From positions 4,694 through 68,693 of the forward strand of contig JAEEMG010000062.1 in assembly GCA_016283095.1 (NCBI GenBank): DNA of 64,000 nucleotides, in the 5' to 3' direction. Positions 2,532 to 51,628 of this stretch are shown here, in pieces (the first letter of the stretch is position 1; each line of letters starts with the position of its first letter). This DNA comes from Paludibacteraceae bacterium (GTDB taxonomy: Bacteria; Bacteroidota; Bacteroidia; Bacteroidales; Paludibacteraceae). Below the pieces are notes generated by a model. That model was not told where the DNA came from and ran no database searches. It worked only from the letters and a program-made list of their open reading frames with translations. Made by a program: the position numbers and the translations under genes.

Positions 2532-3983
2532 ATGAAGTTAAACGATTTGATAAACAGTGTCGACTGCGTAAAGATAGTCGGCAATACAGATAAGGAGATC
2601 TCTGCGATATGTCAGGATTCCCGCCAAGTGTCTGCTGACGCTTTGTTCGTAGCTGTTTGTGGCTATTCTATAGATGGTCACGAATATATCCAGTCTGCAA
2701 TCGAAAAGGGCGCGGCTGCGATTGTGCTTCAGAAGATGCCGGATGTTTTGAATGACGGTGTCGCTTACATTCAGGTGAAGGATTCCGCTGAGGCTCTTGG
2801 TCGTTTGGCTTCTGCTTGGTATGGCAACCCGTCGTCGAAACTGAAACTTGTCGGTGTGACTGGTACTAATGGCAAGACAACTATCGCTACTGTGCTTTAT
2901 AAGATGCACAGAGAGTTCGGACATAAGGTAGGTTTGCTTTCTACTGTATGTAATTATGTAGACGAGAGAGCTGTGCCGGCTACTCATACAACTCCGGATC
3001 CGATCTCGTTGAATAAGCTTCTTTCTGAGATGGTTGACGCTGGCTGTACATACGCTTTCATGGAGGTGAGCTCGCATGCCGCAGACCAAAAAAGAATTGG
3101 AGGCTTGAAATTTGTCGGAGGTATTTTCACAAATATCACTCGTGATCATTTGGATTACCATAAGACATTCGACAACTATATAAAGGCAAAGAAATCTTTC
3201 TTTGATTCTCTTCCTGCCGATGCATTCGCTCTTACTAATGCTGACGACCGTAACGGAAGTGTGATGGTTCAGAACAGCAAGGCTTTGAAGAAAAGTTATT
3301 CGATCCGTTCGATGGCTGATTTCAGAGCGAAGGTTGTGGAGGACAGTTTCTTTGGAATGCTTCTTAATATCGACGGAAGAGAAGTCTCAACTCAGTTTGT
3401 AGGACGATTCAACGCATCCAACCTGCTTGCCGTATATTCAGCTTGCGTATTGCTTGGCAATACACCAGAAGACACATTGGTGGCATTGAGCAAGATGACT
3501 CCAGTCAACGGAAGATTCGAGACAATCCGTGGTGTGCAGAGTGGTGTTTGTGCGATTGTTGATTATGCACATACACCAGACGCTTTGGAGAATGTGATTT
3601 CCACAATCAACGAAGTGAAAAGCCAGAATGCGGAGTTGATCACAGTGGTCGGCTGCGGAGGTAATCGTGATAAAGGCAAGCGTCCGATCATGGCGAAGTC
3701 GGCTGTAACTAACAGCGATAAGGTAGTCATCACGTCGGACAATCCAAGAAACGAGGAGCCAATGGATATCATCAATGATATGTTGGCAGGACTTACTGAT
3801 GAGGAGCAGAGAAACGTGATTGTGAATGCCGATCGAGAGCAGGCGATCAAGACGGCTTGCACGATGGCAAAGAAGGGAGATATCGTCCTTGTGGCAGGAA
3901 AGGGACATGAGGACTATCAGGATATCAAGGGTGTGAAACACCACTTCGATGATCATGAGGTTATTAGAAAATATTTAATATAG
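2532..3983 (+). CDS. murE: UDP-N-acetylmuramoyl-L-alanyl-D-glutamate--2,6-diaminopimelate ligase
   Basis: Mur ligase P-loop [14 protein letters not shown] motif ([10 protein letters not shown]), dcw position after ftsI. Confidence 0.95.
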
Positions 3984-36161: not shown

Positions 36162-37022
36162 ATGGAAAAAGAAGAAAGAACAGAGATGCTGAATCCGTTC
36201 TGTGATGAAGGATTCAAACGGATTTTTGGAGATAAAATCCTGTTGATGGATTTTCTAAACTCATTTGTAGACGCCGGTTCTCCAATTGTGGATTTAACGT
36301 ATGAGAACAAGGAGATGGTGTCGGTGGAGAGTGATGGTCGGACAATAATCTTTGATTTGTTTTGCAAGTTGGATAATGGCAATAATGTCATAATAGAGAT
36401 GCAGAATAAAAATCAGGATTTTTTTGTAGACAGAGCGGTATTCTACCTTTCAAGAGCAATCTCAGCGCAGGGAGAAAAAGGAAGAATATGGAAATATGGG
36501 ATTAATTCAGTAATTGGAATATTCATCACTCAGTTTAGAGTGTTCGACAACGACGATGTCCTTTCTGAGATGAAACTGATTGATCCAAAGACACATAAGA
36601 TGGTTTCTGATAAGATGCATGGTTATTTTATACAGTTGCCTAAATTCAAGAAGTCAAACAACGGATGTGTGGACCATTTTGATGAGTGGATCTACAATCT
36701 GAAAAATATGGAGCGTATGGGGAATATAGAATTCAAGGATCAGGAAGTGTTTGAGAGATTATGGAATCTTTCAAACTGCTCTATGCTTTCCATAGAGGAA
36801 CGCCGCAAATACGAACGCAGCCTGAAAGCCTATCGTGATTATGTGAACCAATTGGATTTTGCAAAGGCTGAGGGAAGAGCGGAAGGTATTGCAGAGGGAA
36901 GAGCGGAAGGAAGAGCGGAAGAACGATCTTTCATGATATCAATGTTAAAGAAGAAAGGAATGAGTGATGAAGAAATCGCATATTATCTGGACATTGATAT
37001 AGAGGAAGTGAAATCTGTGTAG
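36162..37022 (+). CDS. Rpn-family recombination-promoting nuclease / putative transposase (PD-(D/E)XK)
   Basis: N-terminal FCDEGFKRIFG and IIFDLFC...VIIEMQN pattern of the Rpn/YhgA-like family. C-terminal AEGRAEGIAEGRAEGRAEE repeat typical of the family. TAtcTTTG box at 36092-36099. Confidence 0.75.
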   Translation: MEKEERTEMLNPFCDEGFKRIFGDKILLMDFLNSFVDAGSPIVDLTYENKEMVSVESDGRTIIFDLFCKLDNGNNVIIEMQNKNQDFFVDRAVFYLSRAISAQGEKGRIWKYGINSVIGIFITQFRVFDNDDVLSEMKLIDPKTHKMVSDKMHGYFIQLPKFKKSNNGCVDHFDEWIYNLKNMERMGNIEFKDQEVFERLWNLSNCSMLSIEERRKYERSLKAYRDYVNQLDFAKAEGRAEGIAEGRAEGRAEERSFMISMLKKKGMSDEEIAYYLDIDIEEVKSV

Positions 37023-37151
37023 GGGTATTTGTGAAGACGGAATTGTTTCCATTTTTTTTTATTTATGTCATTTCATGATTTTCTTCTTGTTGTTGGTCAA
37101 ATGTGAATTTGTTTGCAAAAAGACAAAAATCTTAAAACATCAATGAAATTA

Positions 37152-37182
37152 TTTGTGAAAATAAAAATATAATATATTTTTG
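37152..37182 (+). promoter_or_regulatory. Bacteroidetes-type promoter (-33 TTTG, 19-nt spacer, -7 TAttTTTG) upstream of the leader RNA and seven-gene operon
   Basis: TTTG at 37152-37155 and TATTTTTG at 37175-37182. Same spacing as the promoter at 33694-33724. Confidence 0.6.
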
Positions 37183-37189
37183 TGATGTC

Positions 37190-37484
37190 TCAAGCAGAAG
37201 CCCAATGGGTGGAGTTTGGGGTAGACATATTGAAAAGCGTTTACTTGACGCTTTGTTCTTGACGTTTCAGAATCTCGCAAATTCTAAATTCCTATCAAAA
37301 GCAAAGCAACAGTAGATGTCTATGGGTGTGTTTGTATGGCACTTGGTGCACCTCGTAAAAGGGGTGTGCTAAGTATTTATATAGGCATAGCGTGGGCTTC
37401 TGCGTTGCTCGTTCTAGATAGGAAGGCAATGCGAGAGCCTTGAAACGTGGGACGAGCGATAAGCACGATTCCCACGCTTTTTTT
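37190..37484 (+). ncRNA. Candidate structured leader / riboswitch-like RNA ending in an intrinsic terminator
   Basis: Long-range 11-bp helix 37194-37204 / 37393-37403. 8-bp helix 37221-37228 / 37316-37323. Hairpin 37234-37254. 14-bp hairpin 37341-37354 / 37361-37374 with four G-U pairs (plus-strand specific). Terminator stem 37446-37452 / 37470-37476 followed by T7. No convincing ORF. Confidence 0.5.
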
Positions 37485-37553
37485 GTGTCTGGGAGGAAAA
37501 AAGGAAATTTAATATTTGAGTTCGCTATTGGGGGTTGTGGCGATGGTTTTGTT

Positions 37554-38909
37554 ATGAAGATTAATACAACGTATTTGTTAGGTGTAATGACAATAGAAAG
37601 TATGGTTTTCTGTGCATCGTGTGTTGACAATCATGCTTCGTATTGTTATGAAGATTGGAATACTAAATTAGTTGAATATCACAACTCGAAATTTTCAAAT
37701 GACGAGGAAAAGTTGAAAGAAGAGTTGGATGTTTATGTAGACTATTCAACTTGTATGAAACAAGCCAATGATGATCCTAATGGATTATTTAAACAACTTC
37801 TATTATCTCCAATACTTGGTGCTCATCCAAATTATTATTCCATAAAAGGTAACCAAATTCAGCAGGAATCTGAAGATCCTAATATTTTGTTTAGGAGTAT
37901 TGTAGAAACTCCGTATGCAGATTTGAAGGGAGCTATAGAAAAGATGGCTTCCTCAAATTGTGAATCTGTGTTGATGACAGATGGAGAATATGTATTGAAG
38001 GATACTAAGGCTAATTGGAATGAAGGGACTCCTTATATGGCGGAGGCAATGAAAAAATGGTTGCTTCGTGGTCATGACATCCATATTTTAGTTGAACCAT
38101 ATATTGAGTCATTCAAAGGCAAAAACTATAACAAAAAAAGATTTTATATCTTTTTTACAGATCGATGTCTAAAGAATAATGTTTATTCTAAAATTGCAGA
38201 TAGAATCAATAAAGATAATATGAAAATTGATTCTTATCATATTTCATGTTCTCATGTAGGCTTAAAAAAACAAAATGGTACATCTTCTGTTGCTAGTCAG
38301 ATGTTAGCGGCTAAAATCACACCAAAAGAATCATTTGAGATTCAAGAGTGGCAAGTATATTGGAAAACTATAGAGGAGTCGATGGTATATAGTAGTTTTG
38401 ATCCTATTACTGGTGCTCCTATGGAAAATAGTGCACAAGTTATATCTGGACTTAGTCTTGCTGAAGATTGTTTGCTTGGATTCAAAATTAAAGATGTGGA
38501 TATGAAAGCATACTCAATATCTGATGAATTTTCTGTGTTTGCAGATTCTTCATTATTCAAGTACATTGGAGAAGCGTTCGAGGTTAAAGATTTTGTCACA
38601 CTTGACTCAAAAGAATTAAGTCAGGGAAACATATCTGTAATGTTTGCAAATCAGAATCAATACAATCCTTTGTTTATGATTAGTTCTCCATATAATTACC
38701 TTAGATTAGACTTTTATATTGGAACTGCAGAATCAACTATAGATAGTTATAAAAATATGTTCTGCTTTGACGATATCACAAAACCAGAACAACCGAATAC
38801 ATCTGTCTACGAAAGCATCAAGCAGTGTATGGACGATGCAGATATTTTGAGTAAGGTGAATGGTGCTCATTTGTATTCAATATATGTACAGTCTCCAAAT
38901 CGTGAATAA
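37554..38909 (+). CDS. Putative lipoprotein with vWA-like domain (operon gene 1)
   Basis: Signal peptide plus lipobox (MKINTTYLLGVMTIESMVFCASC). vWA-like strand/motif order VYVDYSTCM ... ADLKGAIEKM ... VLMTDGE ... IHILVEP. ATG at 37554 lies downstream of the leader terminator. Confidence 0.55.
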   Translation: MKINTTYLLGVMTIESMVFCASCVDNHASYCYEDWNTKLVEYHNSKFSNDEEKLKEELDVYVDYSTCMKQANDDPNGLFKQLLLSPILGAHPNYYSIKGNQIQQESEDPNILFRSIVETPYADLKGAIEKMASSNCESVLMTDGEYVLKDTKANWNEGTPYMAEAMKKWLLRGHDIHILVEPYIESFKGKNYNKKRFYIFFTDRCLKNNVYSKIADRINKDNMKIDSYHISCSHVGLKKQNGTSSVASQMLAAKITPKESFEIQEWQVYWKTIEESMVYSSFDPITGAPMENSAQVISGLSLAEDCLLGFKIKDVDMKAYSISDEFSVFADSSLFKYIGEAFEVKDFVTLDSKELSQGNISVMFANQNQYNPLFMISSPYNYLRLDFYIGTAESTIDSYKNMFCFDDITKPEQPNTSVYESIKQCMDDADILSKVNGAHLYSIYVQSPNRE

Positions 38910-38938: not shown

Positions 38939-39385
38939 ATGAGTAGCTTGATTTTAGGTATTAAACCATTGTTTGTCTTTTTGTGGACAGTAATCATACC
39001 TGACAAAATTTTGACATTGCAGCAATTGCAGGATGTCCAGCAGAACGAGTTTTTTTTAGCGGTTTGTTGGTCTTTAACGGCTTTGTTAATTTCATTAATA
39101 GTGTCTAATTTAATTGCTTTTCAAGGTGGAGATGATAAATCATACATAAAGAGAAGAGTTTGGCATATTATAATAGGAGTCCTATCTGTTATATATTTCT
39201 ACTATTTCTATTATTTGGAAGTTATTCCAAGAATAGCTAATCCAGGATTCCAGTCGATGTTACATAAGACAAATTTGCAGTGCTTGGGTGTCACTTCAAG
39301 TGTGTATATTGTTGTAGGTCTAATCATTATGTTGTGCTGTAGACGTTCTAAATTTGGCTCTATTTTAGGTAAAGTAAAAGATTGA
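38939..39385 (+). CDS. Small 4-TM membrane protein (operon gene 2)
   Basis: 148 aa with four hydrophobic helices. 29 nt after gene 1 and 4 nt before gene 3. Confidence 0.55.
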   Translation: MSSLILGIKPLFVFLWTVIIPDKILTLQQLQDVQQNEFFLAVCWSLTALLISLIVSNLIAFQGGDDKSYIKRRVWHIIIGVLSVIYFYYFYYLEVIPRIANPGFQSMLHKTNLQCLGVTSSVYIVVGLIIMLCCRRSKFGSILGKVKD

Positions 39386-39389
39386 TATT

Positions 39390-40982
39390 ATGGCAGATTT
39401 TTTTGTTCTAGGTATAGGTGGTACTGGAATGCGTTGTATCGAAAGTCTCATTCATTTATGTGCAATGGGAATGTTCGATGACACAACCATTCATCTTCTT
39501 GCTCTAGATACCGATAAAAATAACGGTAATTTTAAGAGACTAAAAGATCTTAAAGATGCTTATGTAAAAGCAAAAGGAGGAAAAAATCCTTTATCAAAAA
39601 CGTTTTTCTCTGCGGCTATTGAGTACTATGAATTTAGCCCAAACTATCAGAGCAATAGCAATTTTGTCGAGAGATTTGACTATACAATTACACAGCAAAA
39701 GAACAGGCATAGATCAGATCTTGCTGATTTAGTATTGACAGAAAATGTTGAGAAGTTCAATCTTGATCACGGATATAGAGCACAAACACATCTTGGATCA
39801 ATGATGATGTATCATTCCATTGTCGAGATGGCAGATAAGGATTGTGATTTGACCAAGTTCCTTGACAAATTCGCTCAAAGTGCCAAAAATGGAGCTAAAA
39901 TGTTCATTTTAGGATCAGTTTTTGGAGGAACAGGGGCGTCTTCAATTCCTATTATTCCATTAGCATTCAAGGATACAATCGCAAAGAGAAGTGGTGACGT
40001 ATCTGATATCATACAAAGTGCATATTTTGGAGCTACTCTTTTGACTGCATATATTACATTTAAGACTCCTAATGAGGACCAGTTAAGGAAGGAAAAAATT
40101 GTGGCAACAAGTGATAAGTTTGATATTAATTCTCAGATTGCTATGATGTTTTATAATGCTGATCCTACAGTTCGCAATGCATACAGCAGATTTTATATGT
40201 TGGGATGCGACTCAAAATGGGATCCAATGAGTCGCCAAGAAGGAAAGATGGCTGAAACACTAACTGGAGGAGCTTCGCAGGAGAACGATTCACATTATAT
40301 TGAACTTATGGCTGCGTGTGCTGCTTTGGATTTTTATAAAACAGATGAAGCAACATTAAAGAAAACTAATGACGGACCACAATATCTTTATAGAGCAGTA
40401 GATGAGTCTGGAAAACTTGATTTTCAAGATTTTGTTGATACAGAAGATGAGAAATCTTTTGCTCAAAGATTCGGCACGTTGATTGCTTTTTCTTTGTTCT
40501 GTAATGGAGATGATGATTTTGTGTCAAAAATCCAGGAAAAAAAGCATGTTGAAATTCAAGATTTTGGAGAAATTGACGTCAATCAAATAAAGTATCTAAA
40601 ACAGTATTTTGAATTATTTCATTGGAAAAAAACGGACAATTTGAAGGACGGTGAAGGTTGGCTTCGTCAGCTTCATCGTTCTGCAGGAGGTTCGGATAAG
40701 TTTTTGTTTAATCAGAATCTATTTTCCCCAACTACTCAAAAGGAGTTGATGGGATTAAAATGGAATAAAGAATTATATCGTTCTGAAGGACTTGGTAAAG
40801 ACAATAAATACGATTATGGTCTTGTCGGTTTGGGACTCGGAGGGTCAAAATTCGATGAGTTCAAAAAGAAATTTATTGAATACTACAAAAAAGGAGATAA
40901 AGGTCAGAGTGAGAATAAGGGAGAACAGTTATACAAACTTGTTTTTGATACTCTTGCTTCATTGTATAAATTTGAAAAATAA
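39390..40982 (+). CDS. Tubulin/FtsZ-superfamily GTPase-like protein, distant (Tubulin_2 / FtsZ-like-1 type) (operon gene 3)
   Basis: N-terminal beta-strand plus Gly loop FFVLGIGGTGMRC (T1-like, 39411-39428). Second loop ILGSVFGGTGASSIPI (tubulin signature GGTG[SA]x, 39924-39941). Intervening DHGYRAQTHLG (T3-like). About 170-residue spacing, as in FtsZ/tubulin. Confidence 0.65.
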   Translation: MADFFVLGIGGTGMRCIESLIHLCAMGMFDDTTIHLLALDTDKNNGNFKRLKDLKDAYVKAKGGKNPLSKTFFSAAIEYYEFSPNYQSNSNFVERFDYTITQQKNRHRSDLADLVLTENVEKFNLDHGYRAQTHLGSMMMYHSIVEMADKDCDLTKFLDKFAQSAKNGAKMFILGSVFGGTGASSIPIIPLAFKDTIAKRSGDVSDIIQSAYFGATLLTAYITFKTPNEDQLRKEKIVATSDKFDINSQIAMMFYNADPTVRNAYSRFYMLGCDSKWDPMSRQEGKMAETLTGGASQENDSHYIELMAACAALDFYKTDEATLKKTNDGPQYLYRAVDESGKLDFQDFVDTEDEKSFAQRFGTLIAFSLFCNGDDDFVSKIQEKKHVEIQDFGEIDVNQIKYLKQYFELFHWKKTDNLKDGEGWLRQLHRSAGGSDKFLFNQNLFSPTTQKELMGLKWNKELYRSEGLGKDNKYDYGLVGLGLGGSKFDEFKKKFIEYYKKGDKGQSENKGEQLYKLVFDTLASLYKFEK

Positions 40983-40988
40983 TAGATT

Positions 40989-43900
40989 ATGTCAACAAAA
41001 GCACTTTTGATAGGTAGCACAAGTGGAGCTGCTGCAAGCGGACAGGGCCAATGGCATGTCTATGATAAAATTACATCTTTCATCGAAGGCATCAAAGCTG
41101 GTGTTTTGAAAGAAGGTGAGACTTTGGATGTTAAGAAGGTAGAGACTCTTATCTCGGGTATGCCAACTCCATGGGCTAGAGCTAAATTGTTTGGTTTGGC
41201 TTTTAAGCCAGTCACTGATAGCAAGAACAATAATACTGTAATCACTAAGTATTACGAACAGCTAATTGAAGAATGGCGTGGATTAATTACTCTTTTAGCT
41301 CTTTATGCTGATACAGACAGAATAAAGATTTCTGAACCAGTGGAAATGGATACAAATGCAGGTGTTTATGATATTACTGCTGCATTTGGACGCATGCTTT
41401 TTGATGATCGCAGTTTATGGTGCGACCAGGATGCATTGGAGAAAGACAAAAATGCTCAGCCTTTTATTCATTTGATTTATTACAAGGGTAAATTGGTTGG
41501 AGGAACATCTCCTTATACCGGTGTGTTTACAGGAGTATGTTACGATAAACTTGATTCTACCGATATTTCAGCTTGGTACAAAGACGGTAAGTTCCAGGAT
41601 CCTACTAAGCATCTAAATTCTGATCAATTACAGAAATTGTATCTATTTGTTCTCAATCTTTCAGAAAATGTAGAGAGTTTTGTGAATAAGATTTATGGTA
41701 CAGATGGTGATACCAGAAAAGTCGCCTTAAATAACTTTATTGAACAACTAAAGATCTGGAAAAAAGAGATAGAGAATAAGGGCTCAAATCTTCAAGATAA
41801 TGGACCTATTGCTAAACTTTCAGGACTTTCAGTTCCGTTCTCGTTGTTGTTTAAAAGTGATGTTCCTGTTTGCCTAAAGACAGATGGTTCATTCTCTTTC
41901 TCATTTGAGAATGGTGCAGAAAAACTTAATGACATACAAGAAATCTTAAATGATTCTGATTGGGTATTGGGTTGGACTGAAAATAGTGATGAAATGAATA
42001 AACTTTCAGATGCTCCAGTATATTATTTGAAGGTTAATAATATTGAAGATAATTCATCTGCGTATTTTACAGTTCCTTTGTCTCAGAAGGGTATTTCCAT
42101 CTTTAGAAATTGTCTTTCTAGTGTTTTAGGATATAGCACAGAAGGAAAGTCAAAGATGGTAGGTAGAATATCGGGTGATATGTTAGCAGTCTCAATGACT
42201 ATTGAGATTGATGGAAAACAGGTTGCTCTAAACCAAAAAGAATACAAGATTGACTGGGTTTGTGGCTTGGGTAAGGTTATTGTGTGGCCAAACTTTATGT
42301 CATCTAATTGGAACAAGTATTATTTGTATTCTGAATATACTCGTGTCGCACAAGAACAGTTTGATCCTTTTTTCTTTGATTTGACAAAAAATGATAAGAT
42401 TATTAAGGATAGACATAACAATTTCTTAACAGCACGTTATGTATATGATCCATCAGAAACAAAACTTGTTGATATAAATCATTTGGTAGAGTATCCTAAT
42501 GATTGCAGTGAAGAAAAAGCAAAGTATAATATATGGAATTCCGACAAACCTTTTGGTGGGTTGATTGCATATACTTCAGAGAACGGCAAAGAAAAAAATG
42601 CTGGATATTTGATTGTACGTCATGATCAAGTAAAGGACTTGTCGAACGATGCAATAATGGATACGGCTGAGGTAGGAATAGATTTCGGAAGCAACAATAC
42701 ATGTATATACTACAAGATGTCTTCACAGAATGATCCTAAACCGATAGAGTTTAAAAATTTTAGAGCAGTTTTGGTTGGTAAAGAGAATAACAATCCTCAC
42801 TCAAATGCAAATGCAGATGAGTTATTCTTTTTCACTAATTATGTTGTGTCAAACGGACAGTTCAAGTCTTGGTTGCATGAACATGATTCTCAATATGTAA
42901 GTAATAATTCTGCTGCAGAAATTGCAGGAGGAGTTCCTGTTAATCGTCCAAATGTTCAGGTTGTGGATATGGACGAGTATGCTATTACTACTCAGGTAGG
43001 AAAGTTGAACTACAACATGAAGTGGCTTAACGATGATGCTGGATTGAACAAAAAGGGTGCATTCCTTAAATCGTTGTGGTTGCAAACTTGTGCGTTCTTG
43101 TATGTGAATAGAATAACACCAAACAAATTGTATTGGAGTTATCCAGGGGCAATGATGGAGTCGGATATCAACAATCTAGACAAAAGAATGGAGAATTTAA
43201 CTAAATCTTTGCCAATTTTAGGAGCAAAAGTGTCGTTGGAGGATCCAAATACAGAAGCAGAAGCTGTGTGTAAATATGCGTTATCCCAACCCTTTGGATT
43301 GTCTAATGATAATATTTTTCTAGGAATTGATGTAGGAGGAAGTACAAGTGACATATTGTTGATAGCTAAAGATCCTTCAAATGGAAATAAAGAGACTCTT
43401 CTAAATGAAAGTTCTGTAAGATTGGCTGCTGGCGTTTTCTTCGGAGCGGTTAAGAATTCAGATGGTTTTAGAAATTCATTGGTAAAGTATCATGAAAGTG
43501 CTATAAATAAAAATGTGTTTGTTTCAAACATTAAGGAGGTAATCTCGAATAAAGGAAAAGCACCATATTTCTTGAATTGTATTTTTGATCAATTGCAACC
43601 ATCTGATTATGATGATTTCTATGATTCTATTTCAGAAAATTCAAAGCAGATATTTGCTATCCCTGCTTATGTGACAGGATTATTGTTGTTCTACTCTGGA
43701 ATGTTGATCGGAAACGTTGTAAAAGAAAGAAATATAGATAGAGTTTCTCGTGTTAAGGTAATGGCTTTTGGAAAAGGAGGACGTTTGTTCCATTGGCTTA
43801 AAGCAATCTCTTCTAGAAGTATGAATAGATATTATCAGAATTGCTTGAATGCAGGTGCTGAAATTATTTCTGGTAAGACTTTTGAGGTCACGTATGAAGA

Positions 43901-44378
43901 CTCTATAGCAGATAGTTGTAAGACTGAGGTTGCTTTCGGATTATGTTCTAATAATAGTTTTGAATCTGTCGACAAAAGCGTTCTTAAATCAGATATTTGT
44001 GGCGAAGAAGGTGTGAAATACACTACTGAATCAAATGATGAGATTTCTCTTGAAGCTTCGTCTAATTTGGATGCCAAATATTTTGAAGAATTGAATCGTT
44101 TAGATTTCACAAGCACTGCGAATTTTGAAAGGTTTGTTTCTATATTTATAAAGTATGTGAGCGAAGAAACAGACATATATCGTAGTGCCGAAACAGATTT
44201 AAGAAGTGATGTGGTGTCTTTGAGAGACGATATCGCAAATTTTATAAAGAGAGACGATGAGTATAAAAAGGCGGAGGCAATAAAGAGAAATAATGGAGAG
44301 TTTGCGTTCCATCAACCGATTATTATTGCAGAAGGTGCCGCATTTTTAAGAAAGTTTATTGATAAAGTATTTGCATAA
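40989..44378 (+). CDS. Giant (1129 aa) actin/Hsp70-fold ATPase-like protein with unrecognised N-terminal half (operon gene 4)
   Basis: Phosphate-1 VGIDFGSNNTCIYY (42675-42701), YWSYPGAM, phosphate-2 FLGIDVGGSTSDILLI (43323-43352), adenosine-like VMAFGKGGRLFHW (43764-43796), all in canonical order. Residues 1-560 match nothing I recognise. Confidence 0.65.
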   Translation: MSTKALLIGSTSGAAASGQGQWHVYDKITSFIEGIKAGVLKEGETLDVKKVETLISGMPTPWARAKLFGLAFKPVTDSKNNNTVITKYYEQLIEEWRGLITLLALYADTDRIKISEPVEMDTNAGVYDITAAFGRMLFDDRSLWCDQDALEKDKNAQPFIHLIYYKGKLVGGTSPYTGVFTGVCYDKLDSTDISAWYKDGKFQDPTKHLNSDQLQKLYLFVLNLSENVESFVNKIYGTDGDTRKVALNNFIEQLKIWKKEIENKGSNLQDNGPIAKLSGLSVPFSLLFKSDVPVCLKTDGSFSFSFENGAEKLNDIQEILNDSDWVLGWTENSDEMNKLSDAPVYYLKVNNIEDNSSAYFTVPLSQKGISIFRNCLSSVLGYSTEGKSKMVGRISGDMLAVSMTIEIDGKQVALNQKEYKIDWVCGLGKVIVWPNFMSSNWNKYYLYSEYTRVAQEQFDPFFFDLTKNDKIIKDRHNNFLTARYVYDPSETKLVDINHLVEYPNDCSEEKAKYNIWNSDKPFGGLIAYTSENGKEKNAGYLIVRHDQVKDLSNDAIMDTAEVGIDFGSNNTCIYYKMSSQNDPKPIEFKNFRAVLVGKENNNPHSNANADELFFFTNYVVSNGQFKSWLHEHDSQYVSNNSAAEIAGGVPVNRPNVQVVDMDEYAITTQVGKLNYNMKWLNDDAGLNKKGAFLKSLWLQTCAFLYVNRITPNKLYWSYPGAMMESDINNLDKRMENLTKSLPILGAKVSLEDPNTEAEAVCKYALSQPFGLSNDNIFLGIDVGGSTSDILLIAKDPSNGNKETLLNESSVRLAAGVFFGAVKNSDGFRNSLVKYHESAINKNVFVSNIKEVISNKGKAPYFLNCIFDQLQPSDYDDFYDSISENSKQIFAIPAYVTGLLLFYSGMLIGNVVKERNIDRVSRVKVMAFGKGGRLFHWLKAISSRSMNRYYQNCLNAGAEIISGKTFEVTYEDSIADSCKTEVAFGLCSNNSFESVDKSVLKSDICGEEGVKYTTESNDEISLEASSNLDAKYFEELNRLDFTSTANFERFVSIFIKYVSEETDIYRSAETDLRSDVVSLRDDIANFIKRDDEYKKAEAIKRNNGEFAFHQPIIIAEGAAFLRKFIDKVFA

Positions 44379-44380
44379 TT

Positions 44381-46810
44381 GTGGAGTTTCTTTCTTTATA
44401 CATAGATAGGTACTATATCATTGGTAATATTGTATCCGCAGAGATTACAGACGATGGGTCATATAATCTTTGCGGTTACAAACCATTGCATTTATCTAAT
44501 TCTGAAGACCGAATTTGGTTGTATTTTTTTGAAGATGTATCTGCAGACATGATAACCTATGGGTTGTCAAATAAAATTCATTGTGATAATAAAGAGCTAC
44601 ACTATTTTGAAGGTAGTGTGTTTGACAATATAGTCAATAAATATTCACAATATAAGTTAAGAGGTGTCTCAAAAGATATGAGTTCCATATTTGAGGATTC
44701 AAAAATATTTGAAGACTTAAAGTCTGGATTCAATAATAAAAGGTATATAGAAACATACGTTTCTTATTCGAATGACATACCAGTTTCTGCTAAAAATTTG
44801 TTTAATGAACTATTAATAAAAAATGGTTTTGTATTAAAGCAGTATATCGCCAGAATCGAAGAATTGACCAAAGAAAAACTTTGTCATAAAGAGGATTATG
44901 TAATAGTTCTTTCAGCATGTGATGAAAACCTTAATATATTGTTATTCGATAGAGGTTTGACTTCAACAAAACAGTTGAAAGGGAAAGGTTTGGATTTGCG
45001 TCAAAAAGCACTTGTTAAATTAGCTGTATCCAATATTAACAAAACAGCACATGTTTTAAGGTCGCAGGATGAAATAGATGATGAGATTATAAGATTGATG
45101 CCATATTCGAAGATTTGGCTGACTAAACTGGATTCGTCATCAATGCCAATTAAACTTGATATAGCTTTTGCTGTAGATCCGAATACGATACATTCTCCTC
45201 AGTTAAAAAAAATAGACGTAGAAGGTTATACAAGAGATTTAATTAAAGAATTGTCTTCGTATATTCATGAATATGTTGCAAAGAATGACGTGGATGAACA
45301 TCAGATTCAGAGAGTTATACTTATCGGTGAAATATTCAATAATGATTCTTTTAGGCAAGAGGTCTTAAGTAAATATTCGTGTGCTTATAATTGCGTTTCG
45401 GTTTCTGATTTGCCATCTATAGTGTCTTATTATACTCAGATGGATTGTTCAAAGTATGAGACAGAAAATACAGCTTTTGTAACTAGAGCAAAAAAAGATC
45501 TAGAAGAGAAACACAAAAATCAGGAACTTCAATTAAGAAAAGAACAAATTTCTCTTCAATCAGAAAAAGAAAGAGATTTAGCTATTGCACAGGCAGAAGC
45601 AAGAAAACAATTTGATTCCTTTAAGAATAAATACCAAGAAGCGGCAAGAGAATTAAGATGGAAAGATGCTATTGATTTTGCAGAAAAGACGAAATGGGCA
45701 TTGGATAAGAAAGATTTAGAATACTCATCGAAAATTGCATATATCGATGGTGATATAGATGAGTATAGAAAAAAATTATCCGAGCAAGAGTATAAATTTG
45801 AAATTTTTAAGAAAGAAATTAAATTGGCTCGAGAATTCTTTGATAATCAAAATTGGGAAGATGCAATAAAACATGCAGATAAGGCTTTGGATGCAAATCC
45901 AGAAGCAGAGGACGCTAAAAGATACATTGTTGAATCTCGAAATAAAATAGCAGAGAAGGGTAAAATTAAGGAATATATCACAAGAGCAACGTTACTTCTT
46001 GGTCAGAAAAATTATGCAGAAGCTTTGGAGGAAGTCGAAGATGGTTTGAAACTCGAACGTGCTAATGATGAATTACTTTCCTTAAAAAACGAAATCACCT
46101 TAAAAGAAAACGATTTTAAGGTTAAGGTTGAGGAACTATCTGGAAGATTAGAGTCTGCAATTTTAAATAAAGAATTAGATTTGGCATTGAACATAATTGC
46201 TGAATTAATTGAATTTGACAATGCTCACTCTGCTAAATGGTTTGACAAAAAAAATGAGGTTAGAGAATTAATTAGAGATAAAGAACAGTTTGAAAATAAG
46301 CTAAAGGTTATAAAATCAGACATCGATTTAGCGTACAAGCTAAAACAATGGGAGAAGGTCCTGTCTTTATGTTCGAATTATTTGTCTAATAAGGATGATT
46401 CCGAAGTGGCTAAAATTAAAAGAGAATCAGAAGCAAGGATCGAAGAAATTAACCAAACTAATAAAATAGTTGACCTATTCGAAGAAATTGATTCTCTTAT
46501 TTCTGAAAAAAAGTACTCTATTGCAGAGAAAAAAGTAAAGTTCCTTCAGTCGGAGTATCCTGAGGAGAGAGAGCGATGCAAAAAAATGATTGGAAAAATA
46601 TTTGATTTAGAAGACGAAGAAGATCGTAAGATAAGAGATAAAAATAGAGGAAGTGAAGATAAATCCGATTCAGATGATTTCTTTAACGAAAAACCTAAAA
46701 AAAAGACAAAAGTTAACATAGATTGTTATGATGATGATTTCTTTAATGAGAAACCTCAAAAAAGAGTAAATGTAAATAAGAACAGTTCTGATGACGATTT
46801 TGATTTTTAA
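44381..46810 (+). CDS. Degenerate actin/Hsp70-fold domain fused to periodic TPR-like/coiled-coil repeats and an acidic-aromatic repeat tail (operon gene 5)
   Basis: GTG start 2 nt after the gene 4 stop. N-terminal approx. 350 aa has relics of the fold (LYIDRYYIIG, VIVLSACDENLNILLFD, RVILIGEIFNNDSFRQ). Six modules (WKDAIDFAEK, NWEDAIKHADKAL, NYAEALEEVEDGL, ELDLALNIIAEL, QWEKVLSLCSNYL, KYSIAEKKVKFL) recur every 53-64 aa. The tail has DDFFNEKPKKK / DDDFFNEKPQKR / DDDFDF. Confidence 0.55.
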   Translation: MEFLSLYIDRYYIIGNIVSAEITDDGSYNLCGYKPLHLSNSEDRIWLYFFEDVSADMITYGLSNKIHCDNKELHYFEGSVFDNIVNKYSQYKLRGVSKDMSSIFEDSKIFEDLKSGFNNKRYIETYVSYSNDIPVSAKNLFNELLIKNGFVLKQYIARIEELTKEKLCHKEDYVIVLSACDENLNILLFDRGLTSTKQLKGKGLDLRQKALVKLAVSNINKTAHVLRSQDEIDDEIIRLMPYSKIWLTKLDSSSMPIKLDIAFAVDPNTIHSPQLKKIDVEGYTRDLIKELSSYIHEYVAKNDVDEHQIQRVILIGEIFNNDSFRQEVLSKYSCAYNCVSVSDLPSIVSYYTQMDCSKYETENTAFVTRAKKDLEEKHKNQELQLRKEQISLQSEKERDLAIAQAEARKQFDSFKNKYQEAARELRWKDAIDFAEKTKWALDKKDLEYSSKIAYIDGDIDEYRKKLSEQEYKFEIFKKEIKLAREFFDNQNWEDAIKHADKALDANPEAEDAKRYIVESRNKIAEKGKIKEYITRATLLLGQKNYAEALEEVEDGLKLERANDELLSLKNEITLKENDFKVKVEELSGRLESAILNKELDLALNIIAELIEFDNAHSAKWFDKKNEVRELIRDKEQFENKLKVIKSDIDLAYKLKQWEKVLSLCSNYLSNKDDSEVAKIKRESEARIEEINQTNKIVDLFEEIDSLISEKKYSIAEKKVKFLQSEYPEERERCKKMIGKIFDLEDEEDRKIRDKNRGSEDKSDSDDFFNEKPKKKTKVNIDCYDDDFFNEKPQKRVNVNKNSSDDDFDF
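46673..46807 (+). repeat. 60-nt periodic coding repeat (gatgatttctttaa[c/t]ga[a/g]aaacct...) giving three DDFF/DDDF motifs at the C-terminus of gene 5
   Basis: gatgatttctttaa occurs at 46673 and 46733; a related gatgacgattttgatttt occurs at 46790. Confidence 0.8.
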
Positions 46811-46832: not shown

Positions 46833-47411
46833 ATGGCAGATGTAATATTAAAAAAGAAGATCACTCTTCGCCGTAAGGGAGAGTGTGTTGAGTTCACTTT
46901 CGATGATAAGTTGAAGGTACAGTTGTTTTGGACTTCTGATACAGATCAGGACCTTTGTATTTTCTTTAAGAAGAAAGATGGAGGAATTGGTGGCGTATTC
47001 TCCAATGAGTACAGAGGTAAGAAGTCTGATCTTGGTTCATTAGACAAGTTTCCATTTATGCTTCATAGAGGAGATGAGAAAGATCCTACAGAAGGAAACG
47101 AGCAGATGGAGCAGGTAGATGTAAAAAATCTTGATGAGATTGATACTGCATATGTATGTGTTGTTAACTATGGTGCTGCTATTGAAGGAGAAGACGTTAC
47201 TTTTGCAAATGAAGGATGTCGTGTTGAATTGAAATCGAACACAGGAGATTATCTTGAAGTTATTGGTGATAGCGACAAGGATGGTTATGTGTTCTGTGTA
47301 TGTTCAATTAAAAATGAGGATGGAAAGAATTCGGTGACAAAGGTTGATGAGGTATACGATCTTTCTGATGCTTTTGATAAAATTCCAGGATTCTCTTTGA
47401 TCACAAATTAA
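46833..47411 (+). CDS. TerD-domain protein (operon gene 6)
   Basis: 192 aa, the size of classical TerD. The order VILKKKITLRRKGE / QLFWTSDTDQDLCIFF / HRGDEKDPTEGNEQMEQVDVKNLDEIDTAYVCVVNY / CRVELKSNTG / GYVFCVCSIKNEDG parallels the TerD pattern (SLSKG / GLGWD..DLDASAFLL / HTGDNRTGEGDGDDE.I.V.L / AFIRL / MLFGELYR). Confidence 0.7.
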   Translation: MADVILKKKITLRRKGECVEFTFDDKLKVQLFWTSDTDQDLCIFFKKKDGGIGGVFSNEYRGKKSDLGSLDKFPFMLHRGDEKDPTEGNEQMEQVDVKNLDEIDTAYVCVVNYGAAIEGEDVTFANEGCRVELKSNTGDYLEVIGDSDKDGYVFCVCSIKNEDGKNSVTKVDEVYDLSDAFDKIPGFSLITN

Positions 47412-47417
47412 TAAGAG

Positions 47418-48029
47418 ATGGTTCAGCTTAAGAGAAAAGTAACTCTAAAAGAGAAACATGAAGTTGCTTCTTCAGAGTCGATTCCTTCAGAAACAAGAAA
47501 TCAACAGGAATCTGAAAACAAGTCAAAGTCTTGGCTTCCATTTCTCTTATGTGGATTACTAATTGTAGGTGCAGGTATATATTTCTTGACACGTAATTCT
47601 AGTGGAAACGAGAAAACATACGCTTCAAATGATGAAAATGAGGGAAAAACAGAAATTAAAAACGAAGATTCTGTTATTCCTGTATCCGATGATCAACAAA
47701 GTCCTGTTGTAAGTACAACATCAGTTGTTGAAGATAAGGATATAATACCAAATGAGGTTGTAACTGCCGTTGAATCTAAAAAAGAGTCGTCAATGCCTGA
47801 CAATCCTATAATAGAGAATAAGGTATCTTCTTCTAAATCATCTACAGATGCTAGTAAAACAGAATCTGTAGTGAGATCAGAATCTATACCTGTTTCTGAA
47901 ATAGAGCTTACAGCTAAAGAGGTAATTCGAGGAAATTATGGAAATGGTCGCATTAGAAAAGACAAGTTAGGTGATCGATATTCTGAGATACAAAGTAAGG
48001 TAAATGAAATGTATCGTAAAGGATTGTAA
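47418..48029 (+). CDS. Single-pass membrane protein with Ser/Glu-rich linker and C-terminal CW_7 (Cpl-7-like) peptidoglycan-binding motif (operon gene 7)
   Basis: TM WLPFLLCGLLIVGAGIYFL. Low-complexity linker. C-terminus ELTAKEVIRGNYGNGRIRKDKLGDRYSEIQSKVNEMY resembles the CW_7 repeat consensus (VI.G.(Y/W)GNG..R...LG..Y..VQ..VN). Confidence 0.55.
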   Translation: MVQLKRKVTLKEKHEVASSESIPSETRNQQESENKSKSWLPFLLCGLLIVGAGIYFLTRNSSGNEKTYASNDENEGKTEIKNEDSVIPVSDDQQSPVVSTTSVVEDKDIIPNEVVTAVESKKESSMPDNPIIENKVSSSKSSTDASKTESVVRSESIPVSEIELTAKEVIRGNYGNGRIRKDKLGDRYSEIQSKVNEMYRKGL

Positions 48030-48544: not shown

Positions 48545-51500
48545 ATGGCAAAAGAACATTACAAAGGGTTGACAGACCAAGAGGTTTTGCAATCAAGAGA
48601 AAAGTATGGAGTAAACATTCTAACTCCACCTGCAGAAGAATCCATGTGGGAGAAGATTAAGAATTGTATGCATTTTTGGTTGCTAAAAGTTGATTTGGCG
48701 ATATTCATAATTGCTGCTATAATTGCATTCGCTTTGCCAATAACAGGCATATATTCCCATGAGGGTCTTTGGGTCGCTCCTGTTCTTTCTTTTGTCTTAT
48801 TTGTTCTTACATATTTTGTCGCGTATTTAGGAGGAGAATGGAATGAAGAAGATGCTGAATTTGATATTGATTCTCTATTTACAATTTTATTGTTCGCACT
48901 TTTACTTTCAGGATCAATAGCATTTTACAATGGCGTGTTCGGAGGTGTAGAAGGATGGACTCCATATCTTGAACTTGTCGGTATTGCGGTTGCTGTCCTT
49001 TTGGCAACAACTGTGGCTCATATATTAGAGTCTCAAAATGAAAAAACATTTCAAAGTTTGAACGATGTAAATGACGATACTCTCGTTAAAGTCATACGAA
49101 ATAACAATGTTTGTCAGGTTCCTCGTCGAGATATTGTTGTGGGAGATATTGTTCTGCTTGAAGCTGGAGAGGAAGTTCCTGCTGATGCAGTGATCCTAAG
49201 ATGCATGAATCTTATAATGAATGAGTCTTCGCTTACTGGAGAACCTCAATGCTCAAAAAGTACAAATCCTGATGAGTTTGATAAGAATGCCACATATCCA
49301 TCTAATCATATTATGAAAGGTTGTACGGTGATGGAGGGTGATTGCATCGCTGAGGTATTTGCAGTTGGTGACAAAACTGCCTGTGGAAAAGTGTTTGAGG
49401 CAGCACAGGTTAAAGATGGAGAAGCTACACCATTAAGTGAGAAACTTGATGAACTTGCCGGATTAATTACTAAAACAAGTTATGGTATTGCTATTCTGAT
49501 TGTGTTAGGACGTCTTATTCGTCATGCATTGATTTTGCCAGAAACAAATTATGTTTCCCTATTTGGATATCTTGGTGTTTCTTTAGTAATTGCTGGATTT
49601 ATTTATTGGGGATTGAATAAAAAGAAGAATGATGATAATGAAGAAAGTATTGAACTATGGCAGGTTATTGTATTTATGATCCTTCCTATAATTGGTATAA
49701 TACTTTATTTCGCATTAGACTCAACAGCATCTACCAATTGGCCTCTATTTATTCAATATGCTCTAGATTCCGTTATGATTGCTGTAACTTTAATTGTTGT
49801 CGCTGTTCCAGAAGGATTACCAATGGCAGTTACGTTAAGTCTTGCATTCAGCATGAAGCGTTTGATGAAACAAAACACATTACCTCGAACAATGCATGCT
49901 TGTGAAACTATGGGTGCTGTTTCTGTGATTTGCTCAGATAAAACTGGAACTTTGACTCAGAATCAAATGAAAGTTGTAGAAACAACTTTTCCTGAATTGA
50001 AAGATCAAAAACTAGGTGACGACAGATATTCGTCACTCCTAAAAGAGTGTATTTCTGTCAATACTACTGCAAATCTTGATTTTGCGGATTCTAAGAAGAT
50101 AAAGGCAATAGGAAATCCAACAGAGGGTGCGTTATTGCTTTGGCTTAATAACAATGGAGCAAATTATTTAAGTATTCGCGAATCATTGCCTGTAATTGAT
50201 CGCTTGCAATTTTCAACCGAGCTTAAGTATATGGCTACAATCGTAAATTCAGAAGTTACAAGTAAGCGAATCGTTTATGTAAAAGGAGCTCCGGATATTT
50301 TGATGGGACTTTGTGATATTTCTGAATCTGAGATGAAGAATTACAATGAAAAACTGACTGAGTATCAAAATCATGCGTATAGGACACTAGCTTTTGCTTA
50401 TAAAGAAATAAAAGATTCTGATGATATCTTTACAGATGGCAAATTGAATATCAACGATCTTAAAATGATGGGAATTGTCGGCATTTTGGATCCTGTTCGT
50501 TCTGATGTGCCTAATGCGATTTCTGAATGTTTGAATGCAGGAATTCAAGTGAAAATTGTAACTGGTGATGCCCCTGGAACAGCTAAAGAAATAGGTCGTC
50601 AACTTGGATTATGGAAAGAAGAGGATAAGGAAGAAAATTTACTCATTGGTACTGAACTTGCTGCAATGTCTGATGAAGAACTAAAAAATCGTTTGCCTAA
50701 AGTTAAAATTATTTCAAGAGCTCGTCCTAACGACAAGGAACGTGCTGTTCGTTTCTTGAAGGATCTTGATTATATTGTTGCTGTGACTGGAGACGGAACA
50801 AATGATGCTCCTGCTCTTAACGCTGCTAATGTTGGCCTATCTATGGGTGATGGTACAGCTGTTGCTAAAGAGGCTAGTGATATGACTATTATAGACAATT
50901 CATTTAGCACTATTGCAAATGCAGTGATGTGGGGCCGTTCTCTTTACAAGAACATCAAGCGTTTCATACTTTTCCAGATGACTGTAAACGTTGCAGCATG
51001 TCTAATCGTTGCAATCGGAGCATTCATTGGGGAAGAGTCGCCTTTGACTGTAACTCAAATGCTTTGGGTTAATTTGATTATGGATACGTTTGCTGCTCTT
51101 GCCTTAGCTTCATTGCCTCCTGCAAAAACAGTTATGGATGAGAAACCACGTTCTGTAAATGAACATATTCTCAAGGATATGGGAGTGGAAATCTTAGGCG
51201 TAGGTGGAATATTCACTGTAATACTTCTTGGAATTTGTGTGTATTTCCAACACACTAATATAACTTGTTTGACAGATCTTTTCGATGGAACTGCGGTGTG
51301 GGGAGACAACGATGGACTTTCTGCATACGAATTAGGCCTGTTCTTCACAATCTTTGTGATGCTTCAGTTTTGGAATTTGTTCAATGCAAAGGCATTCATG
51401 ACTTCTGATTCTGCATTTAAGGGAATTTCTTGGAAAGATACAAAATGGTTTATCATCATTGCCTTGGTAATCTTTGTTGGCCAAGTCCTTATGACTGAAA

Positions 51501-51628
51501 TGCCAGGTTTACAGGAAATGTTTAATGTGGCAGCCGGTGGTGTTAAAGTGATAGATTGGATCATTATTGTAGGTGTTACATCGTTTGTCCTTTGGATTGG
51601 CGAATTATTCAGATTGTTTAAGAAGTAA
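48545..51628 (+). CDS. P-type (P2) Ca2+-transporting ATPase
   Basis: TGE (SLTGEP), VPEGLP in TM4, phosphorylation site CSDKTGTLTQN, TGDAPGTA, hinge VTGDGTNDAPAL, 10 TM. N-terminal cation-ATPase-N segment. Confidence 0.92.
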   Translation: MAKEHYKGLTDQEVLQSREKYGVNILTPPAEESMWEKIKNCMHFWLLKVDLAIFIIAAIIAFALPITGIYSHEGLWVAPVLSFVLFVLTYFVAYLGGEWNEEDAEFDIDSLFTILLFALLLSGSIAFYNGVFGGVEGWTPYLELVGIAVAVLLATTVAHILESQNEKTFQSLNDVNDDTLVKVIRNNNVCQVPRRDIVVGDIVLLEAGEEVPADAVILRCMNLIMNESSLTGEPQCSKSTNPDEFDKNATYPSNHIMKGCTVMEGDCIAEVFAVGDKTACGKVFEAAQVKDGEATPLSEKLDELAGLITKTSYGIAILIVLGRLIRHALILPETNYVSLFGYLGVSLVIAGFIYWGLNKKKNDDNEESIELWQVIVFMILPIIGIILYFALDSTASTNWPLFIQYALDSVMIAVTLIVVAVPEGLPMAVTLSLAFSMKRLMKQNTLPRTMHACETMGAVSVICSDKTGTLTQNQMKVVETTFPELKDQKLGDDRYSSLLKECISVNTTANLDFADSKKIKAIGNPTEGALLLWLNNNGANYLSIRESLPVIDRLQFSTELKYMATIVNSEVTSKRIVYVKGAPDILMGLCDISESEMKNYNEKLTEYQNHAYRTLAFAYKEIKDSDDIFTDGKLNINDLKMMGIVGILDPVRSDVPNAISECLNAGIQVKIVTGDAPGTAKEIGRQLGLWKEEDKEENLLIGTELAAMSDEELKNRLPKVKIISRARPNDKERAVRFLKDLDYIVAVTGDGTNDAPALNAANVGLSMGDGTAVAKEASDMTIIDNSFSTIANAVMWGRSLYKNIKRFILFQMTVNVAACLIVAIGAFIGEESPLTVTQMLWVNLIMDTFAALALASLPPAKTVMDEKPRSVNEHILKDMGVEILGVGGIFTVILLGICVYFQHTNITCLTDLFDGTAVWGDNDGLSAYELGLFFTIFVMLQFWNLFNAKAFMTSDSAFKGISWKDTKWFIIIALVIFVGQVLMTEMPGLQEMFNVAAGGVKVIDWIIIVGVTSFVLWIGELFRLFKK

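Follow-up and report, generated by a model that had tools for sequence, protein, structure and literature searches.

Gut Bacteroidales remodel their capsules, BspA-like and immunoglobulin-like (Ig-like) proteins and S-layer-type lipoproteins against phages, host immunity and competitors, and this surface remodelling has so far been explained mainly by invertible promoters and by UpxY/UpxZ. Here, we analysed a stretch of 64,000 nucleotides (nt) from a Paludibacteraceae bacterium (GenBank assembly GCA_016283095.1, contig JAEEMG010000062.1, positions 4,694 to 68,693 of the forward strand), referred to as the window, in which an earlier inspection of the letters alone (the sequence-only reading) had proposed a riboswitch- or attenuator-like leader in front of an operon. 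The element, at 37189-37484 on the plus strand, is predicted to be a transcription unit of ~295-300 nt with a promoter and a hairpin/T7 terminator. There can be hardly any doubt that it represents a genuine, selected family of structured RNAs, and on balance we take it to be the leader of the downstream operon, from an uncatalogued Bacteroidales family that acts in cis by transcription attenuation.

Riboswitch platforms, T-box and PyrR/RAT-type attenuators are 5' leaders that are co-oriented with the genes they regulate, and the same holds for the window RNA. As in other terminator/antiterminator leaders, a second, conserved partner exists for the 5' strand of its terminator, the two states have nearly the same energy, and a conserved sequence lies in the structured sensor part, flanked by covarying helices. 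It differs from such leaders in that the sensor is a rod of ~100 bp rather than a compact junction, that no Rfam model matched, and that the window RNA adds a 5' anti-core strand and a pairing to a loop near the start codon. Like the HK022 put, Bacillus EAR, LoaP and UpxY ops leaders, the RNA heads long polysaccharide or surface operons, and some copies directly precede upxY, but it has no sequence or structure similarity to these leaders, and the window RNA ends in its own terminator. The ops/pause-hairpin elements of B. fragilis are short (~40 nt) and locus-specific (PMC11685472), whereas the window RNA is ~300 nt long and its core is invariant across families.

With the Bacteroides small RNAs (sRNAs) FopS and GibS the window RNA shares a sigma-ABfr promoter, a Rho-independent terminator and the presence of several copies per genome. 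FopS RNAs measure 65-70 nt, consist of a single-stranded seed and a terminator, and are deposited in Rfam (PMC11697453). Membership in the FopS/GibS group (~65-145 nt, the 5' end being a single-stranded R1 seed) was considered and rejected, the window RNA being a cis-linked rod of ~295 nt with no Rfam match. It resembles 6S RNA in being a long, mostly double-stranded rod with its own promoter and terminator. This assignment was rejected as well: there are small internal loops only, there is no central open-promoter-like bubble and no 6S or 6S-Flavo match, and, unlike 6S RNA, the element is multicopy and sits before a co-oriented gene. Invertible promoters of Bacteroidales, finally, occupy the same slot before the same operon and the same gene classes (capsule loci, surface proteins), but they act at the DNA level with inverted repeats and a recombinase, whereas the promoter of the RNA loci is fixed and a recombinase is absent. 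Terminator-based leaders are a known kind of regulator; what appears to be new is this family, together with its architecture.

A rod-shaped RNA and its family

The minimum free energy (MFE) of 37185-37490 on the plus strand was -127.8 kcal/mol, compared to a mean of -84.2 kcal/mol for shuffled sequences (z -9.4), and the reverse complement reached only -80.3 kcal/mol. The MFE fold has 104 pairs, 27 of them G-U, and consists of a small 5' hairpin (37188-37221) and a long hairpin with its apical loop at 37355-60. The 5' hairpin carries the anti-core GCAGAAGCCCA (37194-37204) and the G-rich motif GGGUGG. Hairpin P1 (37234-37254) has a stem formed by 37234-40 and 37248-54 and the conserved loop UUACUUG. 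From 37255 to 37453 extends the rod of ~100 bp, with its 5' arm at 37255-37354 and its 3' arm at 37361-37453. From base to apex it comprises helices H2c (37255-59/37449-53), H3 (37262-70/37440-48), H4 (37273-79/37430-36), the variable H5 (~37283-96/37417-26), and H6 (37300-24/37391-413), above which stands a variable apical hairpin. The 3' strand of H6 belongs to a near-invariant core, AUAGCGUGGGCUUCUGCGUUGCUCGUUC (37387-37414), which is the target of the anti-core. All these features lie on the plus strand.

Homologues were collected by two exact-pattern scans, covering both strands, of the contigs of one genome per species. The first scan gave 24 loci and the second at least 120 stretches, the 19-mer TGGGCTTCTGCGTTGCTCG (37393-37411) being present as an exact match in at least 120 genome stretches. 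When chance hits and truncated copies had been removed, 114 distinct full-length copies were analysed. Among the matches listed, the hosts belong to the Bacteroidaceae, Prevotellaceae, Muribaculaceae, Tannerellaceae, Paludibacteraceae and Barnesiellaceae, and the genera with copies include Bacteroides, Phocaeicola, Prevotella, Hallella, Paraprevotella, Parabacteroides and Barnesiella. Several genomes carry two to three copies, and the RNA family spans more than 100 gut Bacteroidales species.

The evolutionary support for the rod was measured in 95 sequences of less than 90% identity, from which the variable apex had been removed, using permutation controls. In H3, all nine pairs showed compensatory changes and 94.8% of the pairs were canonical, compared to 65.2% after permutation, and in H4, compensatory changes were found at five of seven pairs, with 98.2% canonical pairs versus 86.2%. 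An independent alignment of 47 full-length sequences, evaluated against 500 shuffles, gave the same picture for the rod as a whole: 94.3% of the cells were paired (87.1% when shuffled), 193 cells were compensatory (59.5 when shuffled) and the covariation score was 0.351 (0.213 when shuffled), and none of the 500 shuffles reached any of these three values. When the partner columns were slid by 1-3 positions, pairing fell to only 36-50%. H5 was evaluated without an alignment, and here the duplex of a member's own arms was more stable than that of arms from different members (-14.9 versus -8.2 kcal/mol), the own duplex being better in 107 of 108 cases. The apical region varies in sequence and in length (33-102 nt) and still folds into a hairpin (z about -3.5; median, -3.3). 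H6 is near-constant, its 3' strand being the search pattern, and the changes in its 5' strand are almost solely G-U-compatible. P1 is paired in 96% of the family, and its pair 37237/37251 occurs as G-C in 86, A-U in 17 and G-U in 5 copies; an alternative in which 37232-40 extends the rod by pairing with the U-tract was rejected, as it gave 17 A-C mismatches where P1 was compensated. Taken together, the covariation of the rod is decisive.

A long imperfect inverted repeat that occurs in many copies could also be a DNA-level element, either a decayed palindrome or miniature inverted-repeat transposable element (MITE), or a segment capable of inversion, with the 10-11-bp inverted repeat GCAGAAGCCC...GGGCTTCTGC at its ends. 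The anti-core and core do form an inverted repeat ~190 bp apart, and, as described below, some homologous operons use putative invertible promoters. However, the modelled pairs contain 448 G-U cells and 35 A-C cells, and the plus strand was the more stable one in 47 of 47 homologues, by a mean of 27.8 kcal/mol, which rules out a DNA palindrome. Moreover, the helices differ between copies by compensatory substitution, promoter and terminator stand at fixed positions, there is neither a recombinase nor a promoter-flanking inverted repeat in the RNA-bearing loci, and no inverted-orientation variant was found among the 114 analysed copies. The strand-symmetric decay and near-identical copies of a MITE or DNA palindrome were not seen. 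We therefore consider a DNA-level element highly improbable.

These results bear on several proposals of the sequence-only reading, whose listed complementarities all occur at the coordinates given. Its plus-strand-specific G-U pairing is borne out by both the folding energies and the G-U excess, its hairpin at 37234-37254 is P1, with covariation at 37237/37251, and the 14-bp hairpin 37341-54/37361-74 contains exactly four G-U pairs, as was proposed. The multi-helix domain that it took for the main fold gives way to a continuous rod, in which 37255-37354 pairs with 37361-37453 according to both MFE and covariation. The pairing of 37221-28 with 37316-23 exists as a complementarity in the window and lacks covariation in the family (own -6.0 versus cross-member -6.1 kcal/mol), and the duplicated hexamer and heptamer boxes, thought to add further alternative pairings, gave no detectable signal.

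The sequence-only reading had recognised no Rfam family in the RNA, and searches of Rfam 15 agree: the 64-kb window gave no match at the gathering threshold, the region 36900-37700 gave chance-level matches only at E values up to 10, and 15 other members (140.8 kb) gave no match except for two tRNAs located outside the RNA in their loci. Nor was there a match to those Bacteroides motifs of Weinberg et al. 2010/2017 that Rfam contains; this comparison did not cover Bacteroides-2, which is absent from Rfam. The RNA is undescribed in the full-text literature that was searched, also with core sequence strings, a coverage that is incomplete and leaves room for an earlier description elsewhere.

With regard to mobile elements, only four exact core matches were found among 2.9 million viral contigs, hence the element is not phage-borne. 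A phage collection gave no match, and in a plasmid collection a divergent copy was found on two Phocaeicola plasmids only, so that the family is plasmid-borne as well. These are Phocaeicola dorei/P. vulgatus plasmids of ~92-95 kb (NZ_CP072250.1, ~53,940-54,185, locus L001, and NZ_CP096966.1), and their copy lies in an unannotated gap 5' of an unrelated gene for a secreted protein of 177 amino acids (aa). A few other copies are incomplete: loci L043 and L118 miss everything 5' of the UUCGCAAC block (H4), L057 retains just the 3' arm, and in L157 the 5' part is fused to the terminator region. Decay of full copies, or else insertion or deletion, may have produced these truncated or rearranged forms. 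Two RNA copies within ~3 kb were seen in L115, in tandem (292-399 and 2982-3091), and in L166, in divergent orientation (114-203 and 1059-1160).

Promoter, terminator and competing pairings

A putative sigma-ABfr-type Bacteroidetes promoter precedes the RNA at 37152-37182 (plus strand), with the -33 box TTTG at 37152-55, a 19-nt spacer, and the -7 box TATTTTTG at 37175-82, as the sequence-only reading had described. This predicts a transcription start site (TSS) around 37187-37192. A TAnnTTTG box was present within 160 nt upstream in 106 of 114 copies, compared to 5 of 107 control windows, and its position is tight, at a median of 60 nt 5' of the first conserved block (P1). At the other end, 96 of 106 copies have a terminator tail with at least six T in 9 nt. 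An open reading frame (ORF) of at least 70 codons begins on the same strand within ~450 nt downstream in 106 of 114 loci; the spacer between terminator stem and ATG has a median length of 73 nt, and just 2 of 99 spacers contain a promoter box. Upstream of the RNA lie unrelated housekeeping genes, whose orientation is random (52 co-oriented, 41 opposite) and which represent 148 Pfam families, each in at most three loci. Because of this co-orientation, the promoterless spacers, and the unrelated and randomly oriented upstream neighbours, the RNA belongs to the downstream gene. The RNA would thus occupy a 5' leader site served by a shared promoter, and since the downstream operon has no promoter of its own, its expression would depend on read-through.

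A leader peptide was considered as well, since a 25-codon ORF runs from ATG 37185 to TGA 37260-62. Upon inspection, neither its frame nor its presence was kept in other copies, and this candidate was rejected. The ORF (37185-37262) overlaps the 5' domain and P1, and its start probably lies 5' of the TSS. The leader thus has no conserved ORF, and in this respect, as in its promoter, intrinsic terminator and mutually exclusive pairings, the earlier proposal holds.

The intrinsic terminator (37447-37484, plus strand) lies before the coding region and consists of the stem 37447-52/37470-75, a 17-nt loop, and seven T at 37478-84. Its stem had been proposed before, and six pairs proved to be conserved, with 88.9% paired and compensatory changes at five of the six. 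A simple hairpin scan did not list this terminator because of its loop limit of 8 nt. The 5' strand of the terminator overlaps H2c and the lower part of H3: the base of the rod (37255-64/37446-53), i.e. H2c and the lower three pairs of H3, shares 37447-52 with it. Since the terminator 5' strand takes part in the last eight rod pairs (GUUCU..GAC with GUC..GGGAC), the zipped rod and the terminator are mutually exclusive. Position 37448 illustrates this competition, as it pairs with 37262 as A-U in 26 and G-C in 16 of 46 sequences (other, 3), and with 37474 in the terminator as U-A in 25, C-G in 6 and U-G in 4 (other, 12), the latter being a less clean covariation. When either state was forced in 104 members, the median difference between terminator and rod base was 2.35 kcal/mol, and in the window the terminator state was favoured by 2.4 kcal/mol. 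A pairing that excludes the terminator is therefore conserved in the family, the support for its H2c part being modest. The sequence-only reading had also foreseen a competition with the terminator, and had assigned the antiterminator role to GCGTGGG at 37391-97; covariation best backs the rod base, 37255-64 with 37446-53, instead.

A second competition involves the core. The anti-core at 37194-204 of the window is an 11-nt perfect Watson-Crick complement of 37393-403, and an unbroken run of at least seven Watson-Crick pairs linking the core to the 5' domain of 62 nt was found in 65 of 114 copies (57%), compared to 6% of shuffles and 4 of 114 copies with a reversed sequence. Two types of anti-core target adjacent parts of one invariant core: GCAGAAGCC with GGCUUCUGC in 42 members, and CCACGCCGA with UCGGCGUGG in 22 members. 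Where the core varies, the anti-core tracks it, as in L150 (GCAGAGGCCC with GGGUCUCUGC), L041 (CCCACGCGU with ACGCGUGGG), L036 (ACGCCAGU with ACUGGCGU) and L100/L134 (CGCUGAU with AUCAGCG). The anti-core/core helix and the lower rod do not fit into one nested structure, and in the upper rod the helix would displace the strand GUAGAUGUC. We read the helix as a competing conformer; alternatively, it may be a stretched pseudoknot. The same helix had been proposed to close and enclose the entire domain. Its complementarity stands, in the window and in the 65 copies, whereas its enclosing role does not: being incompatible with the rod, it is not part of the main nested fold.

The third pairing reaches beyond the T-run, where the element had been thought to end. 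The segment T3, CACGAUUCCC (37464-37473, plus strand), which covers the end of the terminator loop and the 3' strand, is a 10-nt complement, three G-U pairs included, of 37530-37539. The latter is the loop GGGGGUUGUG of a hairpin at 37522-37543 (plus strand, found by the hairpin scan), located 15 nt 5' of the ATG at 37554. Across the family, such an anti-T3 hairpin loop lies 30-70 nt beyond T3, and T3 and loop vary together in a locus-matched manner (CAGAUUCCC with GGGAAUCUG, GACUCCC with GGGAGUC, CGAUACCC with GGGUGUCG, GACUACCC with GGGUAGUC, AGAAUCCC with GGGAUUCU, and CUGCCC with GGGCAG). The T3/anti-T3 pairing of the own locus amounted to -10.2 kcal/mol, against -7.3 kcal/mol between loci with a different T3 and -6.1 kcal/mol after shuffling (p ~1e-13). 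Of two further candidate contacts, the one between the G-rich 5' motif and the 3' strand of the terminator was rejected, as its complementarity was above that of shuffled sequences and came without covariation, and kissing between the P1 loop and the terminator loop was weak (5.57 versus 5.14, p 5e-4).

As mentioned above, we favour a cis-acting attenuator, and the pairings would combine in it as follows. During transcription, the rod would zip from its apex downward and act as the antiterminator, its base sequestering the terminator 5' strand ~20 nt ahead of 3' strand synthesis, with read-through as the expected result. Whatever weakens or stabilises the rod would then set how often transcription ends at the T-run. 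A conserved trans-acting factor, be it protein, RNA or small ligand, is likely to recognise the near-invariant 3' core GCGUGGGCUUCUGCGUUGCUCG, and the 5' anti-core could be a built-in competitor that unzips the upper rod by pairing with the core. In the read-through RNA, the freed terminator 3' strand would pair with the hairpin loop ~15 nt before the start codon, and through this T3/anti-T3 pairing, translation initiation or mRNA stability is probably tied to the decision made in transcription.

Some of the same features would also suit a stand-alone gene of ~295 nt for a trans-acting sRNA: an own promoter and a good intrinsic terminator, extremely conserved sequence blocks resembling sRNA seed regions, and a locus-specific complementarity between T3 and the downstream loop. 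The terminator would then be efficient, and the RNA would accumulate and base-pair via its core, P1 loop or terminator loop. Multicopy Bacteroides sRNAs with sigma-ABfr promoters are known, FopS being an example (PMC11697453). We regard an sRNA gene as unlikely, because the promoterless downstream genes and short spacers require some read-through, because the terminator has a conserved competing pairing, and because a pure sRNA would not need the strict co-orientation with the next gene. One target of such an sRNA would be the hairpin loop before its own downstream gene, encoded in cis and regulated in trans.

Downstream genes and putative invertible promoters

The first downstream genes are heterogeneous but follow a theme, most of the downstream genes coding for surface proteins or belonging to UpxY/capsule loci. 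NusG/UpxY-like proteins were found in 7 of 107 loci and BspA-type leucine-rich repeat proteins in 6 of 107, and other first genes encode Big_2, BACON, DUF6140, DUF4988, PEGA, lipocalin-like and Por_Secre_tail proteins and many lipoproteins without a Pfam match. Across the family, there was no common metabolic theme among the downstream genes that would hint at a ligand, and there was no pointer to Ca2+, Mg2+ or nucleotides, which the sequence-only reading had listed among its candidates. A DUF6140 protein of 73 aa (MPRFIITTKQMK...) is the product of the first gene after the RNA in L008, L018 and L049. In Phocaeicola sartorii DSM 21941, three copies (L065, L089 and L103) precede upxY. In these loci, and also in L120 and L132, all of the capsule type, the RNA is followed by a second hairpin and the ops-like GGTCATCGGTTGACC CGACAGGCTGCATCTA, and then by the gene of a UpxY-family NusG paralogue. 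As the RNA lies upstream of the hairpin, the ops-like sequence and upxY, the leader and the UpxY system are stacked in series. A pause-hairpin/ops arrangement that matches the P. sartorii layout has been described for the capsule leaders of B. fragilis (PMC11685472).

The RNA just upstream of these elements in three P. sartorii capsule loci, the long downstream operons for surface structures (including the NusG/UpxY-like, BspA-type, Big_2 and BACON genes), and an invariant core that suggests recognition by a conserved machine would fit another type of leader as well, one for processive antitermination or for recruitment of a NusG paralogue (put, EAR, LoaP/UpxY-like), in which the RNA or a core-bound factor modifies the polymerase so that it ignores the terminator of the leader and, further along the long surface and capsule operons, later terminators or Rho. 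We find this doubtful, and rather more so than an sRNA, since there is no similarity to any antitermination RNA in Rfam and the conserved terminator/antiterminator competition explains read-through without modification of the polymerase.

In the window, the RNA precedes an operon with a tubulin-like gene, of which 58 homologues were found in Bacteroidales genomes. The RNA occurs at the same position, 1.9-2.7 kb 5' of the tubulin-like gene, in 17 of these 58 operons, and in 14 of the 42 that have enough upstream DNA, some of the copies belonging to divergent core subfamilies. The comparison of regions upstream of homologous operons, which had been proposed as a check, found the RNA in part of the operons, 28 of the 42 being without it. 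At least 4 of the remaining 28 contain a segment of 145-180 bp with 17-29-bp inverted repeats directly 5' of the first gene (L151:3992-4203, L159:3944-4145, L189:4008-4204 and L197:3983-4196). In L151, the only locus checked for it, a tyrosine recombinase gene (2735-3937) adjoins the segment. To judge from this organization, the segments look like phase-variable invertible promoters of the tubulin-like operon. The RNA-bearing loci do not share these features: there were no inverted repeats around the promoter in the window and in the three P. sartorii copies, there was no recombinase, and the upstream genes are unrelated housekeeping genes. Since a putative invertible promoter stands in the place of the RNA, the position appears to be a regulatory slot, and because both precede the same operon in different genomes, RNA leader and DNA inversion would be interchangeable modules.

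The operon of the window lies on the plus strand. Its first gene (37554-38909) encodes a protein of 451 aa with a lipoprotein-like N-terminus and no Pfam match, and the second (38939-39385) a small membrane protein. These are followed by the tubulin-like gene (39390-40982), with weak similarity to tubulin/FtsZ, by genes 4 and 5 (40989-44378 and 44381-46810), encoding proteins of 1129 aa and 809 aa (the latter with TPR repeats), and by genes 6 and 7 (46833-47411 and 47418-48029), with a 192-aa and a CW_7-repeat protein among the products. None of the large operon proteins matched Pfam, the TPR repeats of the 809-aa protein and the weak tubulin-like similarity aside. By eye, the GIDFG/GIDVGG motifs of the 1129-aa protein suggest an actin/Hsp70-like ATPase. 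The closest relative, Ca. Scybalocola fimicaballi, has 93% identity on the tubulin-like protein, and the exact protein is present in two Logan metagenome assemblies only. A gene for a P-type cation ATPase (48545-51628) is located 3' of the operon. On the upstream side of the RNA lies a PDDEXK_2 gene (36162-37022; Rpn-like putative transposase), in which short DNA repeats at ~36870-36925 code for an AEGRAEG-type peptide repeat at the C-terminus. In view of this gene, a second multicopy family adjoining transposases or invertases was considered and rejected, the upstream genes across the family being unrelated. In three loci of the set, the gene next upstream encodes a serine recombinase (Resolvase).

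Weighing the attenuation reading

Several points weigh against a cis-acting attenuation leader. The RNA was not detectable in 28 of the 42 homologous operons, even by unfiltered search. Within the rod base, H2c was canonical in 92.8% of pairs versus 91.4% after permutation, and its support is modest because the variation is almost one-sided and wobble-rich. The anti-core is missing in 43% of copies, including those linked to UpxY, and is therefore not essential to the basic mechanism. TSS, 3' end and read-through are all deduced from sequence, covariation cannot say which conformer is the ON state, and the strength of the U7 terminator would fit a stable stand-alone sRNA just as well. Finally, neither a ligand or protein nor a conserved neighbouring regulator was found.

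A more far-reaching interpretation is that the family is a new class of RNA switch which replaces DNA inversion for variable surface, capsule and conflict-type operons. The invariant core would then be read by a conserved factor or signal, and the anti-core would compete with this, or leaders of different loci would interact in trans and in this way coordinate the choice of the surface operon to be expressed. At present, we regard this as speculative and would not expect it to hold.

With its ~100-bp rod, built-in competitor strand and link to the translation start, the RNA has an unusual architecture, and it ranks among the larger orphan cis-regulatory RNAs supported by covariation. Copies in cultured strains, among them Phocaeicola sartorii DSM 21941, Parabacteroides distasonis NM39_I3 (L019), Prevotella denticola NCTC13067 (L099), Paraprevotella clara YIT 11840 (L058) and Xylanibacter rodentium (L102), make the family directly testable. 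In some genomes the RNA stands before capsule loci, and in others it replaces an apparent invertible promoter before the same operon. A large conserved leader RNA in the same regulatory slot points to an unrecognised, RNA-based layer of control in the gut Bacteroidales.

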